Positions 9,537 to 19,400 of a stretch of DNA of 64,000 bases are shown piece by piece (the first letter of the stretch is position 1; each line of letters starts with the position of its first letter). Origin of the DNA: Bacteroidota bacterium (GTDB taxonomy: Bacteria; Bacteroidota; Bacteroidia; NS11-12g; UBA955); the NCBI GenBank assembly GCA_027488835.1, contig JAIYAW010000005.1, positions 40,307 through 104,306 on the forward strand, written 5' to 3'. A program made the translations under genes and the position numbers. The notes beneath the pieces are model-generated. The model was not told the DNA's origin and made no database searches. It saw only the letters and a program-made list of their open reading frames with translations.

Positions 9537-10493
9537 ATGAGAAAATTTGAAATATTAGGTAGCAAAGACACACGAAGTGGTTTCGGTGCGGGATTATTAG
9601 AAGCTGGACAAGCCGACGAAAATGTAGTTGCACTTTGTGCCGACTTAACAGGGTCGTTAATGATGGATGCATTCAAAGATGCTTTTCCTACAAGATTTAT
9701 CCAAGCAGGTATTGCCGAAGCAAACATGATGGGTGTAGCTGCAGGATTGGCTATTGGTGGTAAGGTTCCATTTACTGGAACTTTTGCTAACTTTTCAACT
9801 GGTCGTGTGTACGATCAAATTCGTCAAAGCATTGCATATAGCCATACCAATGTGAAGATTGCTGCATCGCATGCGGGTTTAACATTGGGGGAGGATGGTG
9901 CTACACACCAAATTTTGGAAGATATTGGGTTGATGAAAATGTTGCCTGGCATGACTGTTATCAATCCATGCGATTACAATCAAACAAAAGCGGCAACAAT
10001 TGCCATTGCGAAAATGAATGGTCCCGTTTATTTGCGTTTTGGTAGACCAAAATGGCCTGTATTTATTTCAGAAGATACCCCATTTGTAATTGGAAAAGCA
10101 TTAATGCTAAATGAAGGAACTGACGTAAGTATTTTTGCTACAGGTCATTTGGTATGGAAAGCAATTGAAGCGGGTCATATTTTGGCTGAAAAGGGCATTA
10201 GTGCTGAAATTATCAATATTCATACAATAAAACCTCTTGATATTGATGCTGTAATTACATCAGCGAAGAAAACCGGTTGTGTAGTAACTGCAGAAGAGCA
10301 TCAAATGAATGGCGGATTGGGAGATAGTATTGCACAATTGTTGGCCTTGAAAATGCCTACGCCGTTAGAAATGGTGGCGGTGAATGATAGCTTCGGTGAA
10401 AGTGGAACTCCAGATGAATTGTTGGTGAAGTACCACCTCGATAGCCAAGATGTTGCCGATGCAGCCGTTCGCGCTATAGCAAGAAAAATATAA
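9537..10493 (+). CDS. Transketolase, C-terminal (pyrimidine-binding/C-terminal domain) subunit
   Basis: FIQAGIAEANMMGVAAGLAIGGKVPF and HAGLTLGEDGATHQ motifs of the transketolase Pyr and C-terminal domains; 318 aa. Confidence 0.88.
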   Translation: MRKFEILGSKDTRSGFGAGLLEAGQADENVVALCADLTGSLMMDAFKDAFPTRFIQAGIAEANMMGVAAGLAIGGKVPFTGTFANFSTGRVYDQIRQSIAYSHTNVKIAASHAGLTLGEDGATHQILEDIGLMKMLPGMTVINPCDYNQTKAATIAIAKMNGPVYLRFGRPKWPVFISEDTPFVIGKALMLNEGTDVSIFATGHLVWKAIEAGHILAEKGISAEIINIHTIKPLDIDAVITSAKKTGCVVTAEEHQMNGGLGDSIAQLLALKMPTPLEMVAVNDSFGESGTPDELLVKYHLDSQDVADAAVRAIARKI

Positions 10494-10504
10494 CCTATAA
10501 CAAA

Positions 10505-11194
10505 TTAAGCAGTTTTTTGAATGGCCTCTAAAAGGGCCATTTTTTTTGCACGCGATATTTTAATTCTAGTATCATTATTCATAATAACCTCATCAGTACT
10601 GAAAGATTTAACATGGTCAAGGTTTACCGCGTAAGATCGGTGAACCCTTACAAATGTCTCAGGGAAATTATGAATAATGGATTTGATAGTTTTAGAAATT
10701 GTATAGAATTTATTATTGGTATACAAATTTGAATAAGAACCATAGGCTTCAATAAAAACAATATTGTTATATTGTAATTTAGTAATTGACTTATGATCTT
10801 TTATAACAATGTGATTCTTTACGTTTGATTTTTCATCACTTTTTATTTGTTTTTGTATGCGCTCTGAAAAGAAATTAAAATCACATTCAAGGCTGTCTAG
10901 CAACAAGTAATCATAAAAACCTTGTCTTATAGATTCAATTGCGTAGTCGGCGTTTTCTGAAACCATAATCAGATGAATGTTTTTTCTGGTTATTTCTTTC
11001 AAGCGAATTTCAGTTTCAAGAATATTGAAATTCTCTTTATCAACAAAGAGGTATATTTTGTCTGATGACGTGAAATTCTTTTCTCCATTGACTTTATCAA
11101 GGGATTTAATTCTTGCATTTGAAAATTTAGCACAAATTAAGTCGCTAATTTTTTTAGTATTAAATTGGTTATTGAATTGAATTAAAAATATCAT
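10505..11194 (-). CDS. LytTR-family DNA-binding regulator with a degenerate N-terminal receiver-like domain
   Basis: C-terminal LytTR signature (NIVFIEAYGSYSNLYT...FVRVHRSYAVNLDHV). The N-terminal approx 120 aa resemble a REC fold (IYLFVDKE, HLIMVSENAD, GFYDYLLL) but lack the N-terminal acidic pair. Confidence 0.8.
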   Translation of the reverse strand: MIFLIQFNNQFNTKKISDLICAKFSNARIKSLDKVNGEKNFTSSDKIYLFVDKENFNILETEIRLKEITRKNIHLIMVSENADYAIESIRQGFYDYLLLDSLECDFNFFSERIQKQIKSDEKSNVKNHIVIKDHKSITKLQYNNIVFIEAYGSYSNLYTNNKFYTISKTIKSIIHNFPETFVRVHRSYAVNLDHVKSFSTDEVIMNNDTRIKISRAKKMALLEAIQKTA

Positions 11195-11644
11195 CTCCGT
11201 TTTAAATTATTATTTACGTACAATCAAAAAAGCATCGTACTTTTTTGTATGATGTAGAATATCATCTACAAAAATAACCTAATTTTGAATGTAATATTTT
11301 ATAATATTGTAAGATAATTGTTAATTAATGTATTTTTTTCAAGAAATTATATTTCAATAACTTATGCGATTTTTTTTGAGAAATATTGGATTTTGGTACA
11401 AAAAAAATTATAAAATCAAACAATATATAGAAATCGAGGTTCATTTTACATTGTATAAAATTTGTTTCTAATGACTTTCCAAGATATCAATTTAGAATCT
11501 TTTTCTGATTTATTTCGATTACCAAGTACTTTCGAATAATGTGGTACTCCAGATGAAATATTGGTGGAGTACCACTCGGATAGCCAAGAAGTTGCTGATT
11601 TCGCAATCTTTGCTTTTGTTAGAAATGTATAACCTATTACAAAA

Positions 11645-12334
11645 CTAAGCCGTTTTTTGAATGGCCTCTAAAAGAGCCGTTTTCTTTGCGCGCGATATTT
11701 TTATTTTAGTATCATTATTCATAATGACTTCATCCGTGCTGAAAGATTTAACATAGTCAAGATTTACTGCGTAAGAGCGGTGAACCCGAACAAATGTCTC
11801 TGGGAAATTATGAATAATTGATTTGATAGTTTTAGAAATTGTATAGAATTTTTGGTCGGTATATAAGTTTGAATATGAACCATAAGCCTCTATGAAAACA
11901 ATATCGTTAAATTGTAATTTGGTAATTGACTTATGATCTTTAATAATGATGTGATTTTTTACGGTTGATTTTTCATCACTTGTTATTTGTTTTTGTATGC
12001 GATCTGAAAAGAATTTAAAATCATATTCAAGACTGCCTAATAACAGGTAATCATAGAAACCATGTCTTAAGGATTCAATTGCATGATCTGCGTTTTCCGA
12101 AACCATAATTAGATAAATGTTTTTTCTGTTAATACCTTTTAAGTATGTTTCTGGTGAAAGAATATCGAAATTTTTCGTATCAACAAACAGGTAAATTCTA
12201 TCTGTTGATGAAGAATCTTTACCCGCATTGAATTTATCAATAGATTTAATTCTTGCATTTGAAAATTTCGCACAAATTAAGTCGCTAATTTTTTTAGTGT
12301 AAAATAGATTGTCGAATTGAATTAAAAATATCAT
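11645..12334 (-). CDS. LytTR-family regulator, tandem paralogue of 10505-11194
   Basis: About 80% amino-acid identity to the neighbouring LytTR gene. The identical start context gaattgaattaaaaatatcat is shared by both copies. The track ORF is extended to a TTG at 12364; the ATG at 12334 (MIFLIQFD...) corresponds to the start of copy 1. Confidence 0.8.
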   Translation of the reverse strand: MIFLIQFDNLFYTKKISDLICAKFSNARIKSIDKFNAGKDSSSTDRIYLFVDTKNFDILSPETYLKGINRKNIYLIMVSENADHAIESLRHGFYDYLLLGSLEYDFKFFSDRIQKQITSDEKSTVKNHIIIKDHKSITKLQFNDIVFIEAYGSYSNLYTDQKFYTISKTIKSIIHNFPETFVRVHRSYAVNLDYVKSFSTDEVIMNNDTKIKISRAKKTALLEAIQKTA

Positions 12335-12576
12335 TTTCCTTGGTTTTGAATTATTGTTGTTCAAGTCAGCATAGTTAAAATAATTACGGACAAGAATATT
12401 TTCTACAAAAATAATTCACAAGTACAAGTCAAATTTCTTGAAGTTGTTGCATAATTAAATTCGGTACATATTAGATAGAGGCTCGGTAATAAATAATTGA
12501 TAAGTATATTTTTAACATTTTTATTGTTCAGGTATTTCGGATTTTGGAACAAAAAAATGACTAAAACTGAACTGTA

Positions 12577-13788
12577 TTAATTCAGTTTTAAGTTCTGAAA
12601 GTATACATTCGGACTGATTCCCGTTATTTTCTTGAAACTAACGTAATATGTGGTCCGTGAATTGAATCCTGAAAAATTACCAATTGCCTCCATCGTGTAT
12701 TTTTTGTTGCTGTTATCTTTTAACAATTTTATGGAATGATCGATTCGCATTTCACAAATGATATCGGGAAAGGATTTTTTGATGTGGTTATTAAGAATAA
12801 ATGAAATATGATGACTAGGAATTGAAAAATGGTTTGCAGCCATGGCAATTGAAAATTCAGGATTTAAATACAATTGTTTTTCATTTATTTCTGAAATGAT
12901 AGTTTGTGCCAAAATAAACTCTTTGTTATCAACTTCATCGGTATCATTTTTAAATGATTTAAAATTAGGTAGTGATTTTTCATTATCAGCTATGGTTTTA
13001 TAATTGATTTTTGGTAAACCATACAGAAGTAAAGGATTCAATAATATGTATGTTGCTAGTATTATAATAGACAAACCGGTTACAAATAATGGGATTTTTA
13101 AAAATAAATTCGAATGAACAGTAATGGTAGAAATAAAAATTGAATTATAAATTGATGAATATGCAACTGAAACAACAAAAACCGAAATTACAATTAAAAA
13201 TAACTTTAACCATTTTAAAACAAATTGTGATTTAATTTCACTATTGAGTTGTATGCTTCTGATATAGTTTCGCCACGCAAACAATGTATATGATACATAT
13301 AATAGAACCCGCAAAACAAAATTGTATTTTGCTTTCATTAATGTACCTGGATAATTGGCTATTTTTGTATAATCTGTGGATATTGTACTTGCCCAATATT
13401 GCCAGTGTTGAGGTCCTCCCGAATAATAATCCAAATTATCAATAATTGCATAAACAGCCGGAATTAAATGGAGCAAATCGATTTTCGAGAAGTTATAATT
13501 TTCATCTAAATTTATGACTACATAAAAATAGATTGCAGGTTGAACGATATAATAGAAAGGGGCAAAACCCCTTAACAAAAATGGTACGTTACCAATCAAT
13601 CCACTGATTACAAAAACATGTACCAAATGATAATTGATTATGCCCCAAAACATTGCAAACATTAACCATTTGAGTTTTGGATTTCCATTTTTTTCAATTA
13701 AAATTGTTCCACACGCAATAAAGGTTATTAATACAGCAGTAATCAGCATTACTATCACTGAAGTATCCTTAGGAATAACGAAAATCAT
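12577..13788 (-). CDS. Polytopic membrane protein with C-terminal AraC-type HTH DNA-binding domain
   Basis: N-terminal approx 260 aa with about 6-7 hydrophobic helices. The C-terminal approx 100 aa carries a typical AraC/XylS HTH (EKQLYLNPEFSIAMAANHFSIPSHHISFILNNH...GFNSRTTYYVSFKKITG). Confidence 0.8.
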   Translation of the reverse strand: MIFVIPKDTSVIVMLITAVLITFIACGTILIEKNGNPKLKWLMFAMFWGIINYHLVHVFVISGLIGNVPFLLRGFAPFYYIVQPAIYFYVVINLDENYNFSKIDLLHLIPAVYAIIDNLDYYSGGPQHWQYWASTISTDYTKIANYPGTLMKAKYNFVLRVLLYVSYTLFAWRNYIRSIQLNSEIKSQFVLKWLKLFLIVISVFVVSVAYSSIYNSIFISTITVHSNLFLKIPLFVTGLSIIILATYILLNPLLLYGLPKINYKTIADNEKSLPNFKSFKNDTDEVDNKEFILAQTIISEINEKQLYLNPEFSIAMAANHFSIPSHHISFILNNHIKKSFPDIICEMRIDHSIKLLKDNSNKKYTMEAIGNFSGFNSRTTYYVSFKKITGISPNVYFQNLKLN

Positions 13789-13944
13789 CTCAAATATATA
13801 AATTTATAGGGAGTTAAAAATAAGCAAGTATTTTGGTAGTTTGATTTGGTAAATTTTTTTCGAAAATAATGCATTTGCCTTAATTTGCGATTATTCAAAG
13901 ATCACTTTTTTTCAATAAATAAGTAGATAATTTGGAATACGAAT

Positions 13945-14095
13945 TTATTTGGATTTTGTGTTTTGTAGGCATTCACTTTGTGCAATACCCGTTATTATCT
14001 TGAAGCACACATAAAAAAGTTCTTTGATGAGTATTAATTTACCTGGTTATTTGATGATAAAAGCAAATACCCAATATTCATTGTGCCAAAATTGT
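13945..14095 (-). pseudogene. Chimeric remnant of a third membrane-AraC paralogue (3' end fused to a mid-gene segment; approx 650 bp internal deletion)
   Basis: 13945-14035 aligns base-by-base with the 3' end of gene 15155-16366 (15158-15250). 14029-14095 aligns with 15908-15975 of the same gene. The intervening portion is missing and no intact reading frame remains. Confidence 0.45.
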
Positions 14096-14470
14096 AAATG
14101 ACACAGTGAATATGGGCAATGTCTGTGCTGTAATGTAACTAGGTAAAATAACGAGAATTATTTTAAAGAAACATTGATGTGAAATTAAGTCCAGGTTTTA
14201 TTATGTGGCTCCTATCTAAATAATTTCTTTTAACTGTTTAAACTTCATACTAAAGTGAAAAATTCCATATTTTTATCATAACGAAGAAATGGTTTCTGTT
14301 CTAAAAAGCAATTTAAGGAATGTACGGATTTGCAACAAAAATGTCCTAAAATCATAAAAAATAGTTTGTATCGTATTGTTTTTTAATCTTTTAAATTATT
14401 TGTTGTTGCATTTTGATAAATCACACAATTTTCAAAATATGCAGAATCGATTAGAATTTAACTTTGTGAA

Positions 14471-15115
14471 ATGAAAAATTTGGGTGAGATAATTGATGTA
14501 GATATTTTTCTATTGGATGAAGTTTCTTTGTATGAAAATAATTTATGGCAAGAAAATTATAAATTACACCTTGCATTAAACAAGTTTAAATCGTTTAAAA
14601 TTGGAATACCCTTCGATTGCAAAAATAAATTGTTAGGACCAGTGATTCAGTTTATTGATTCAATCAATTTGAATGGTAGTTATTTTGTATATTTCAATAT
14701 TAACAATGAGGAAAATTTATTAGCATTAGTAAATAATTATCACTCAGAATTGACAAATCATATTTTTTACATTTTGCCTGATAAAAAAGTGAAATACTCA
14801 AAACTATCAAAAAATTTTTGGGACATACAATTGTTGGGATTTGAAATTCATATACTAAAATGTGACAAGATAGAAGAATGCAGGTTATCGCCTTCAATTA
14901 TGAATAAATATTGGCGGAAAGGAGCGATAGTTGGTATTGTAGGATTTACAAAGAATCCTATTCGGTTATTTAGAAAAAGAAAATTACAACAGTTGATAAG
15001 ACAAAAAATATTTGATTATTGGATAACTGAAATCATAGATCAAAAAGACGTGACTTATTTAAATGAAATCAAACTAAAAGCAGAATTGCTTAATTTTCGT
15101 GTTTTAAATAAGTAA
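14471..15115 (+). CDS. Hypothetical protein (no recognisable domain)
   Basis: 214-aa ORF, the only plus-strand ORF in the island. It is Lys/Asn-rich and is preceded by approx 680 bp of noncoding AT-rich DNA. Coding status is uncertain. Confidence 0.4.
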   Translation: MKNLGEIIDVDIFLLDEVSLYENNLWQENYKLHLALNKFKSFKIGIPFDCKNKLLGPVIQFIDSINLNGSYFVYFNINNEENLLALVNNYHSELTNHIFYILPDKKVKYSKLSKNFWDIQLLGFEIHILKCDKIEECRLSPSIMNKYWRKGAIVGIVGFTKNPIRLFRKRKLQQLIRQKIFDYWITEIIDQKDVTYLNEIKLKAELLNFRVLNK

Positions 15116-15154
15116 ATTAAATATTAAAATGATCAATACGGCTGATTATTCTTT

Positions 15155-16366
15155 CTATGGATTTTTTATGTTTTGAATGTATTCACTTGGTGTAATACCC
15201 ATTATTTTCTTGAAGCTCACATAAAAAGTAGTTCGTGAATTGAATCCAGAAATATTACCAATTGCCTCCATAGTGTATTTTTTATTTCGATTGTCTTTTA
15301 ATAGTTGAATGGCATGATCAATTCGCATTTCAGAAACGATATCGGGAAATGATTTTTTAATGTGATTGTTAAGAATAAATGAAATATGATGATTTGGTAT
15401 TGAAAAATGTTTCGCAGCCGTATTCAATGAAAAATCCGGATTTAAATACAATTGTTTTTCGTTGATCTCGGAAATAATACTATTGGCCAAAATATTTTCT
15501 TTATTATCACTGTTAGTCATATCATTTTTGAATGATATAAATTTTGATAACGCATTTGAATTGTCAATTATCGTTTTGTAATTGATTCTAGGTAAACCGT
15601 AGAGTAAAATCGGATTAAATAAAATATATCCCGACAGTGCCAAAATAGATAAGCCAATTAAGCTAATTGTAATCAAAACGGAGACATTGGAATTGTCCAT
15701 TATTGTATCAAGATAGTTAAAATTACTTACAGAACTTAAACTAACCGTTACAACAAAAACCGACATGATAATCAAAAATAATCTTAACCATTTTAGAACG
15801 AATTGATCTTTAATTTCTTGATTGTTTTTGACATAATGAAAATAGTATCGCCAAGCGAATAAAGTGTATGAAATCTTTAACAAATCAAGGAAAATAAAAT
15901 GATATTTGGATAGTATTAATTTGCCTGGATATTTGGTCAAGAAAGAAAAATCATTAGATATTGTATTTGCCCAAAATTCCCAATGGTTAGGGCCTCCGCA
16001 ATAAAATCCCCAATTATCTATAACCGACAAGACGAAGGGAATTAAATGCAGTAAATCTTTTTTTGTAAAATTATAGTTTTCATTCAGGGTTACTATAACA
16101 TAAAAATAAATTGCAGGCTGAATTATATAATAATAAGGATACAATCCCCTAATGAAAAATGGGAAATCTTTAATTAACCCCAAGGATATAAAAAGAATTA
16201 CGGAAAAATGAAGACCAATCTCTGTAAATATGATAAAAAGCAGCCACTTCAGTTGTGGATTACAATTTTTTTCAATTAAAATTGCTCCACACGCCAAAAA
16301 TGTAACTAGCACTGCTAAAATAAGCAGTGACTGCACGAAATAGCTTGGTGAAATAAAGAAAATCAT
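15155..16366 (-). CDS. Polytopic membrane protein with C-terminal AraC-type HTH domain (paralogue of 12577-13788)
   Basis: Same length (403 aa) and architecture as 12577-13788. Alignable throughout, including EINEKQLYLNPDFS and FPDI..EMRIDH in the HTH region. Confidence 0.8.
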   Translation of the reverse strand: MIFFISPSYFVQSLLILAVLVTFLACGAILIEKNCNPQLKWLLFIIFTEIGLHFSVILFISLGLIKDFPFFIRGLYPYYYIIQPAIYFYVIVTLNENYNFTKKDLLHLIPFVLSVIDNWGFYCGGPNHWEFWANTISNDFSFLTKYPGKLILSKYHFIFLDLLKISYTLFAWRYYFHYVKNNQEIKDQFVLKWLRLFLIIMSVFVVTVSLSSVSNFNYLDTIMDNSNVSVLITISLIGLSILALSGYILFNPILLYGLPRINYKTIIDNSNALSKFISFKNDMTNSDNKENILANSIISEINEKQLYLNPDFSLNTAAKHFSIPNHHISFILNNHIKKSFPDIVSEMRIDHAIQLLKDNRNKKYTMEAIGNISGFNSRTTFYVSFKKIMGITPSEYIQNIKNP

Positions 16367-16465
16367 ATTTGGTGACTCCTATGCAAAGATATAGGCATAT
16401 TCTTGATTGAATTAAAGGATACGCAAAAAAATCAAATTAATTCTGTTGTACCTTTGCTTAGTTAA

Positions 16466-19400
16466 ATGAATACAAGGGAAATCTTAAGTGAGTATTTGAA
16501 AATAGAGCCGGTTAAAGAATTGGTTGAAAATTGCCAAACAGATAATAAAACTATTTTTTTACAGGGATTGAGTGGATCAGGAGGTGCAATGGTTGTGGCA
16601 TCGGTTTATGCATCACTTCAACATCCACTTTTGTTGGTAATGCCTAACAAAGAGGAGGCAACCTATTTGAAATCGGATCTTGAGAATTTATTAATTGGAG
16701 AGCCCATTTATTTTTTGCCAGAATCGTTTCTTAAGCCTTATCAACCAGCGCGCGAAAGCGCCATGTCGGTTCAAGAACGAATAGAAACATTAAGTAGTTT
16801 TCGTAAAAACAACAAACGCATTTTGGTTACTTATGGCCGTGCGTTGGCTGAGTTTGTAATAGACAAAGTTCAACTAACCCAAAATTCGTTTGAAATAGCA
16901 AAAGGCCAAATACTCGACGTTGATTTTTTAATGGAGTTTTTAGAAATCAACGAATTTGAACGTGTCGATTTTGTATTCGAACCAGGTCAGTTTAGTTTGC
17001 GTGGAGGGATATTCGATTTATTTTCATTTGCCCATGAATATCCCTTCCGAATTGAATTGGATGGCGACATCATTGAGAGTATTCGTGCTTTTGATGTAAA
17101 CAATCAATTGTCTATCAAAGAAATGGCTCAATTTTCTTTGGTGCCTAAGATTAATGCCACCCATGATATAAAGAAGTCAACTATTTTTGATTACCTCCAT
17201 GAAAATACCTTGGTGTTTTCATTGGATTCATTTTTGCAAGTTGAAGATTTGGCAAAAGGCTGGGAAACAGCGCTGCAAAATCACCAAGCTGCCATAGATT
17301 TAAAAAGTGAGAATCTTCCTATTCATCCCAAAGAAATTTGGATGAGTCCCAAACAATGGGTTCAATCTTTTTCTAAATTTAGGCAGATTTATTTGGGGGG
17401 AGAAAAACCGTTAGAGAAATTTATCACCATTGGTTTTCAGCAAGAACCTCAACCAATTTTTAAAAGGAACTTTGATATGCTAAAGACTTGGTTGGCTGAA
17501 AATCAACAAAAGCAATATCAAACATTGGTTTTCAGCGACAATAGCCGACAAATAGAACGTTTACAAACTATTTTAAAGGATACTTCCATAGAACATGAAT
17601 TCACTCCAGTTTATGTTGGGCTATCTGGTGGATTTTTGGATGCTGAAGCCAAAATAGCCTTTGTTACTGAGCATCAATTGTTTGATAAGTACTACAGGCC
17701 GAAATCACGTCAACAGTATTCCAACCAAACGTCCCTCACTCTCAGAGAGCTAAAGAATTTAAAGCCAGGTGACTTTGTAACGCATATAGATCACGGAATT
17801 GGCAGGTTTGCAGGACTTGAAAAAATGCAAATGAATGGGGTAACACAGGAAGTGGTTCGTTTGGTTTATCGCGATAACGATTTGTTGTATCTGTCGGTGA
17901 ATAGTTTGCATAAAATTAGCAAGTATTCAGGTAAAGATGGAACAGCACCTAGTATGCACAAGTTGGGAAGTGGGGCTTGGGAAAAGCAAAAACGTACCAC
18001 CAAGAAAAAAGTAAAAGACATTGCCAGAGAACTTATTGCATTGTATGCAAAAAGGAAAAAAGAGAAAGGTTTTGCATTTGCTCCGGATAATTATTTGCAA
18101 TTAGAATTAGAAGCTTCATTTTTTTATGAAGATACTCCTGACCAGGCTAAAGCTACTGATGATATCAAGCGCGATATGGAAAATGAACAACCCATGGACA
18201 GATTGATTTGTGGGGACGTAGGTTTTGGTAAAACAGAAGTAGCAATGCGCTCAGCGTTTAAAGCCGTTTGCGATAGTAAACAGGTTGCTATTTTGGTGCC
18301 TACAACCATTTTGGCACAACAGCATTATAGAACATTCAAAAAACGTTTTGCAGGTTTCCCTGTTGAAGTAGACTATTTAAACCGGTTTAAGTCAACAAAA
18401 GAACAGAAAGAGACCTTGGAGAAATTGAAATCTGGAAAGGTAGATGTAATTATTGGAACCCACCGTTTGCTTGGAAAAGACATTGAATTCAAAGACCTAG
18501 GCTTGATGGTAATTGATGAAGAGCAAAAATTCGGAGTGGGTGCAAAGGAGAAATTAAAAGCAATTAAGGTAAATATTGATACACTTACCCTAACCGCAAC
18601 TCCCATCCCAAGAACATTGCATTTTAGTTTAATGGGGGCAAGAGATTTGAGTATTATCAATACACCACCACCAAACAGACAACCTGTTCACACAGAATTA
18701 GCTACCTATAACCGAGAATTACTAGGTAAGGTAGTAACAGATGAAATGAATAGGGGTGGTCAGGTTTTTGTTGTCCATTCTAGGGTGAAAGATATTCATG
18801 AATTGGCCAATGTAATAGCGTCGGAAGTTCCAGGGGTGAGGGTTTGTGTGGCACATGGTCAAATGGAAGGACATGAGTTGGAAGATGTGATGGTGAAATT
18901 TATTGAAGGCGAATACGACGTTTTGGTTGCTACCACGATCATTGAAAGTGGGTTAGATATTCCAAATGCCAACACTATTGTAATTAACAATGCACATTTA
19001 TTTGGATTGTCTGATTTACACCAAATGAGAGGCCGTGTTGGGCGTTCAAATATCAAGGCATTCTGTTATTTATTGTCTCCTCCTGTTAATTTACTTCCTG
19101 AAGATTCAAGAAAACGATTACGAACATTAGAAGAATATAGCGAATTGGGAAGTGGATTCCAAGTGGCGATGCGTGATTTGGATATTCGTGGTGCTGGAAA
19201 TTTACTTGGTGCAGAGCAAAGTGGGTTTATTTCAGAAATGGGATTTGACATGTACCATAAAATATTGGATGAGGCTGTAAGAGAATTAAAAAATGAAGAA
19301 TTTACGGATACTTTTGATACTTCATATGATATTAAAAGTAGAGATTGCCAAATAGATACACATTATGAAATTTTAATTCCTTCGAATTATGTATCTCAAA

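Follow-up and report, generated by a model that had tools for sequence, protein, structure and literature searches.

The regulatory genes at positions 10505-16366 of the window, by which we mean the whole 64,000-nucleotide stretch of Bacteroidota DNA analyzed here, make up a pair of transcription factors that is specific to one lineage and inherited vertically; tandem duplication has multiplied this pair and in part eroded it. The block is flanked by the gene for the C-subunit of a split transketolase (TktC), which ends at 10493 on the plus strand, and by mfd, which starts at 16466 on the same strand. All elements listed for it in an earlier, sequence-only reading were found in place, namely two LytTR genes, two intact membrane-AraC genes, one decayed AraC gene, an orphan ORF and long AT-rich spacers. 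The three spacers (GC content 0.23-0.28) occupy 11195-11644 (450 bp), 12335-12576 (242 bp, or 212 bp with a TTG start) and 13789-14470 (682 bp). Given that the genes of the block have homologs at 40-100% identity and Ka/Ks values of 0.09-0.25 for paralogs and orthologs, they are real genes and not chance ORFs, and by the measure of these substitution ratios all gene copies are under purifying selection.

Conservation of the AraC-LytTR pair at the mfd/tkt site

In each of the relatives found (about 17 loci), mfd and tkt enclose an AraC-LytTR pair, also where the genome has only one AraC and one LytTR gene. In addition to the window, these comprise nine fetched genomic loci (L001-L003 and L006-L011; the upstream sequences of L006 and L009 are identical) and eight metagenomic loci (L094, L096 and L098-L103), of which several are near-identical and one, L103, is the same contig as L003. 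The carriers are a small group of freshwater Flavobacteriales. Adjacency and orientation at this site are constant across loci, and the earlier observation that the two families stand side by side extends to the whole lineage, where they always adjoin. The AraC:LytTR copy ratio is 1:1, 2:2 or 3:1 (the last in L094) and is not locked. In L008, the order AraC-LytTR-tkt'-psiAraC-psiLytTR-tkt holds decayed copies of both genes, which argues that the pair duplicates as a unit. Compared with a distant subgroup, the flanking Mfd and TktC proteins are 83-93% identical and the DNA-binding domains of both regulators 62-65% identical, whereas the input domains diverge fast, the seven-helix (7TM) domain of the AraC protein to 30% and the pseudo-receiver of the LytTR protein to approximately 20% identity.

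A co-occurrence check, chosen beforehand as a possible refutation of the proposed module, went against it outside this lineage: the two families were found together at none of 75 genomic and none of 70 metagenomic LytTR loci, and LytTR genes accompanied distant 7TM-AraC genes at none of three distinct loci. Every co-occurrence goes back to a single locus in a single lineage and therefore counts statistically as one event, and the absence elsewhere shows a single origin and not a lack of function.

A seven-helix AraC regulator and a LytTR regulator with a degenerate receiver

The AraC gene product is a transmembrane transcription regulator, in which a seven-helix bundle (N-terminus out, C-terminus in) is joined by a disordered tether of about 28 residues to an AraC/XylS dual-HTH domain. 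The two copies in the window, AraA (12577-13788) and AraB (15155-16366), are encoded on the minus strand, are each 403 residues long and are 63% identical; AraA is 83% identical to the second-position AraC protein of L001 and L007. In AraB, transmembrane (TM) helices at residues 7-31, 37-62, 76-94, 102-117, 153-181, 189-218 and 228-250 are followed by a disordered linker (257-284) and the AraC DNA-binding domain (285-401), and AraA likewise consists of a 7TM domain, a linker and an AraC domain. AraB clears the Pfam cut-offs for both HTH_18 and HTH_AraC; AraA scores 27.3 bits against HTH_AraC (cut-off 26.6) and, at 33.3 bits, falls 0.3 bits short of the HTH_18 cut-off (33.6). The AF2 model has seven TM helices with a bundle pLDDT of approximately 90, in agreement with the earlier view that these are polytopic and not signal-peptide proteins. 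The accompanying proposal that their membrane part resembles a histidine-kinase sensor found no support, as neither 7TMR-DISM nor 5TMR-LYT nor another sensor model in Pfam gave a match, and 55 of 56 sampled proteins with the shared TM domain carry an AraC fusion. With 10,506 cluster representatives, the family defined by this domain is very large, yet we found no model for it in Pfam or NCBIfam, and no paper or characterized member in the literature. Its resemblance to the 7TM bundle of eukaryotic GPCRs (identity 5-12%, Foldseek E ~1e-2, TM-score 0.40-0.53) is one of fold only, reflecting helix arrangement in a predicted model, with no evidence of homology or G-protein-like signaling.

Transmembrane transcription regulators (TTRs) such as ToxR, TcpP, CadC and BcrR have been surveyed in a census that reported their enrichment in Bacteroidota and more than two TM segments in 27% of them (Demey et al., 2023, PMC10269533). 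[quoted passage not shown]

The LytTR gene product is a soluble regulator whose N-terminal domain adopts the receiver fold yet lacks both the metal-binding acidic pair and the conserved Lys-Pro. LytA (10505-11194, minus strand, 229 residues) comprises a pseudo-receiver (residues 1-122) and a LytTR DNA-binding domain (residues 128-228; Pfam LytTR, 63.6 bits, cut-off 22.6). The second such regulator, LytB (Pfam LytTR, 69 bits), is 83% identical to LytA (Ks 0.63; Ka/Ks 0.13). Its ORF (11645-12364, minus strand) extends to a TTG at 12364, but homologs, with a length of 229 residues, begin at an internal Met, and we therefore place the gene at 11645-12334 with 229 residues. The AF2 model of LytA (pLDDT 83) contains a (beta-alpha)5 domain and a LytTR domain. 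Full-length ComE (4cbv) was the best structural match in Foldseek (E = 3e-12), with REC domains at ~1e-3; NCBIfam BtsR aligns to residues 74-220, and Pfam Response_reg was not detected at E <= 1. The pocket of LytA reads F7-N8, D52, S79 and L99-D100 where canonical receivers have [ED]-D, D, T/S and K-P. The acidic pair and Lys-Pro are absent from all 11 family members, every one of which has a hydrophobic residue at position 7 and has lost K99 and P100; D52 is kept in six, and position 79 is Ser in six and Ala in five. Among 70 canonical Bacteroidota REC-LytTR regulators, by contrast, Asp is present at position 52 in 69, Lys in 66 and Pro in 66, with E/D-D, Lys and Pro kept by 64-66. These matches and residue counts substantiate the predicted receiver-like fold lacking an acidic pocket. 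Phosphorylation of the window copies, which retain Asp52 and Ser79, appears unlikely.

Atypical or aspartate-less receivers, such as HP1043, ChxR and JadR1, retain the receiver fold as a scaffold with the phosphorylation chemistry gone, and their activity usually depends on expression level, constitutive dimerization or ligand binding. The family described here is likewise such a scaffold, but some of its members still have Asp at the acceptor position. Known atypical receivers are mostly of OmpR/NarL type, and we found no description of a LytTR-output family whose receiver is degenerate. Canonical REC-LytTR regulators (ComE, AgrA, BtsR, LytR, AlgR) share the two-domain architecture and fold of the window proteins, which differ in lacking the acidic pair and Lys-Pro and in having a 7TM-AraC gene upstream in place of an adjoining histidine kinase.

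Predicted promoters and possible links between the two regulators

Each LytTR gene is predicted to have its own conserved Bacteroidota-type TAnnTTTG promoter. The predicted LytA box (11256-11277, minus strand) consists of TATTTTTG, matching the Bacteroidota -7 element TAnnTTTG, then TAGA, and lies 74 nt 5' of the ATG; this 22-nt repeat is 91% identical to 12393-12414. The box aligns 5' of all 13 family LytTR genes, with the -7 box 49-98 nt upstream. In the predicted LytB promoter region (12393-12467, minus strand), the -7 box TATTTTTG lies at 12406-12413 and a TGTAC box 54 nt upstream of it, at about 12463-12467. Across the nine first-position LytTR genes that were examined, a TGT(T/A/C)C box (TGTTTC in L002) keeps a constant distance to the -7 box; second-position copies lack it. 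No 9-bp/12-bp direct-repeat operator was noticed. A terminator-like hairpin with a T-run (12548-12591, minus strand; 13-bp stem, -13.7 kcal/mol) overlaps the AraA stop codon. Its descending arm is a conserved GTTCAGTTTTA box, which relatives keep as sequence but not as stem; the hairpin is strong only in the window genome. In the predicted divergent AraB/mfd promoter region (16367-16465), AraB has its -7 box TATCTTTG at 16384-16391 (minus strand), and the mfd strand carries a TACCTTTG box. L001, L007 and L008 conserve both boxes at the same positions, and so does the distant subgroup in slightly altered form.

Signaling between the 7TM-AraC and LytTR proteins is plausible but unproven. Our preferred reading, to which we give an even chance, is a two-tier cascade without phosphorelay that runs from the membrane AraC protein to the LytTR gene. 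The 7TM-AraC protein would sense a membrane or extracytoplasmic cue and act on DNA while membrane-tethered, most likely at the promoter of the LytTR gene directly downstream and via the position-fixed TGTNC box. Since phosphorylation could not switch the LytTR protein, control would be by abundance, and possibly also by a partner binding the pseudo-receiver, and the protein would carry the signal to unlinked targets. A comparable precedent is the switching on of the soluble regulator ToxT by membrane-bound ToxR/TcpP. We counted for the cascade the domain architecture, the pseudo-receiver, the fixed adjacency and orientation at mfd/tkt, the duplication of the pair as a unit, the separate LytTR promoter with its TGTNC box, the hairpin after AraA, the purifying selection on all copies and the domain-wise divergence. 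Also in its favor, a different co-directional gene follows each of the distant 7TM-AraC genes, as is usual for AraC-type regulators that control a neighbor. We counted against it that the TGTNC box might bind LytTR itself (autoregulation) or another factor and is lost at second-position copies, that the weak hairpin after AraC in relatives makes read-through co-transcription possible, that copy numbers are uncoupled (3:1 in L094), that co-occurrence is a single event at one locus in one lineage, and that the window copies, with Asp52 and Ser79 retained, might after all be phosphorylated, unlikely as this is.

The two proteins might instead be independent regulators with unrelated targets, neighbors by descent that came or arose side by side a single time and were trapped between two essential loci, which we think rather unlikely. 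Such independence would account for co-occurrence at one syntenic site in one narrow lineage and nowhere else found, for the separate promoters and for the independently varying copy numbers. It fits less well with an order and orientation that outlasted divergence of the 7TM domain to 30% and of the pseudo-receiver to ~20% identity, with several rounds of duplication and loss in which neither family was lost from any locus, and with a duplication unit in L008 that holds both genes.

Improbable, in our estimate, is direct signaling by sequestration, in which the cytoplasmic face of 7TM-AraC would bind the pseudo-receiver, and LytTR would be held inactive at the membrane, or activated, until the signal. 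Neighboring membrane proteins control LytTR regulators this way in Streptococcus mutans, and "LRS-like" Bacteroides variants have a membrane protein encoded upstream (PMC6193735, PMC13384398). The LytTR Regulatory Systems (LRS) HdrRM and BrsRM of S. mutans (PMC6193735) resemble the window in a phosphorylation-independent LytTR regulator encoded beside a polytopic membrane protein, and the Bacteroides variant shares the upstream membrane gene (PMC6193735). The fast, parallel divergence of both input domains beside conserved DNA-binding domains would be expected of co-evolving partners, and the invariant residues Y89, H107, P110 and W193 of the 7TM domain are close to where TM3, TM4 and TM6 are predicted to end on the cytoplasmic side. 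However, LRS regulators are bare LytTR domains, expressed from one autoregulated operon with 9-bp repeats 12 bp apart, and the membrane proteins of LRS, with 3-4 TM helices, lack a DNA-binding domain; the window regulators carry a pseudo-receiver, gene order is reversed, promoters are separate, such repeats were not noticed, and the membrane protein has seven TM helices and its own AraC domain. Moreover, the wider 7TM-AraC family manages without LytTR partners, and L094 has a 3:1 copy ratio.

Far less probable still is an ordinary two-component output, in which an unlinked histidine kinase would phosphorylate Asp52 and the AraC genes would be unrelated. The receiver fold and the Asp52 and Ser79 of the window copies would allow it, but all 11 members have lost the Lys, the cis-Pro and the acidic pair that binds Mg2+, Asp52 is not conserved in five, Response_reg goes undetected in Pfam at E <= 1, and a kinase gene was found in none of the AraC-LytTR loci.

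Duplication scars and an orphan gene

A recently acquired accessory island inserted between mfd and tkt, as first proposed, would fit the GC content of the block (0.28, against 0.37-0.39 in the flanks) and a content of only regulators and a pseudogene. It is contradicted by the relatives, all of which, down to an Mfd identity of 83%, have the same site occupied, and by low GC in all eight relatives measured (0.28-0.31 against 0.36-0.40). Neither the block nor its immediate surroundings contain a tRNA, the five island proteins match no mobility gene, the orphan ORF matches no phage or defense family, and no repeats bound the block. The repeats inside it are scars of tandem duplication, with host tkt sequence among them.

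Judged by these repeats, the long spacers are in part such scars, consisting of a tkt 3' pseudo-fragment and an AraC remnant. The tkt' pseudo-fragment (11528-11643, plus strand) is left from a tandem duplication in which the 3' end of the TktC gene was copied along: the DNA repeat 10402-10504 / 11541-11643 is 76% identical, and tblastn aligns GTPDEILVEYHSDSQEVADFAIFA with GTPDELLVKYHLDSQDVADAAVRA of TktC (E = 1e-8). L007 and L008 carry corresponding scars. The decayed AraC remnant (13951-14100, minus strand, ~150 bp) comprises two fragments matching AraB in tblastn, one at 13951-14016 (residues 381-402; DNA repeat D3, 86% identical to AraB) and one at 14023-14100 (residues 128-154; DNA repeat D9, 76%). 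A longer remnant of 70 codons lies at the same place in L001 and L007.

The orphan gene (14471-15115, plus strand) encodes 214 residues with a function not assigned to any family, and had no match in Pfam, NCBIfam, PHROG or PADLOC. It is missing from loci with a single AraC-LytTR pair and is not integral to the AraC-LytTR module. Its homologs form only 12 clusters, and paralogs with approximately 50% identity adjoin a Crp/cbb3-oxidase cluster.

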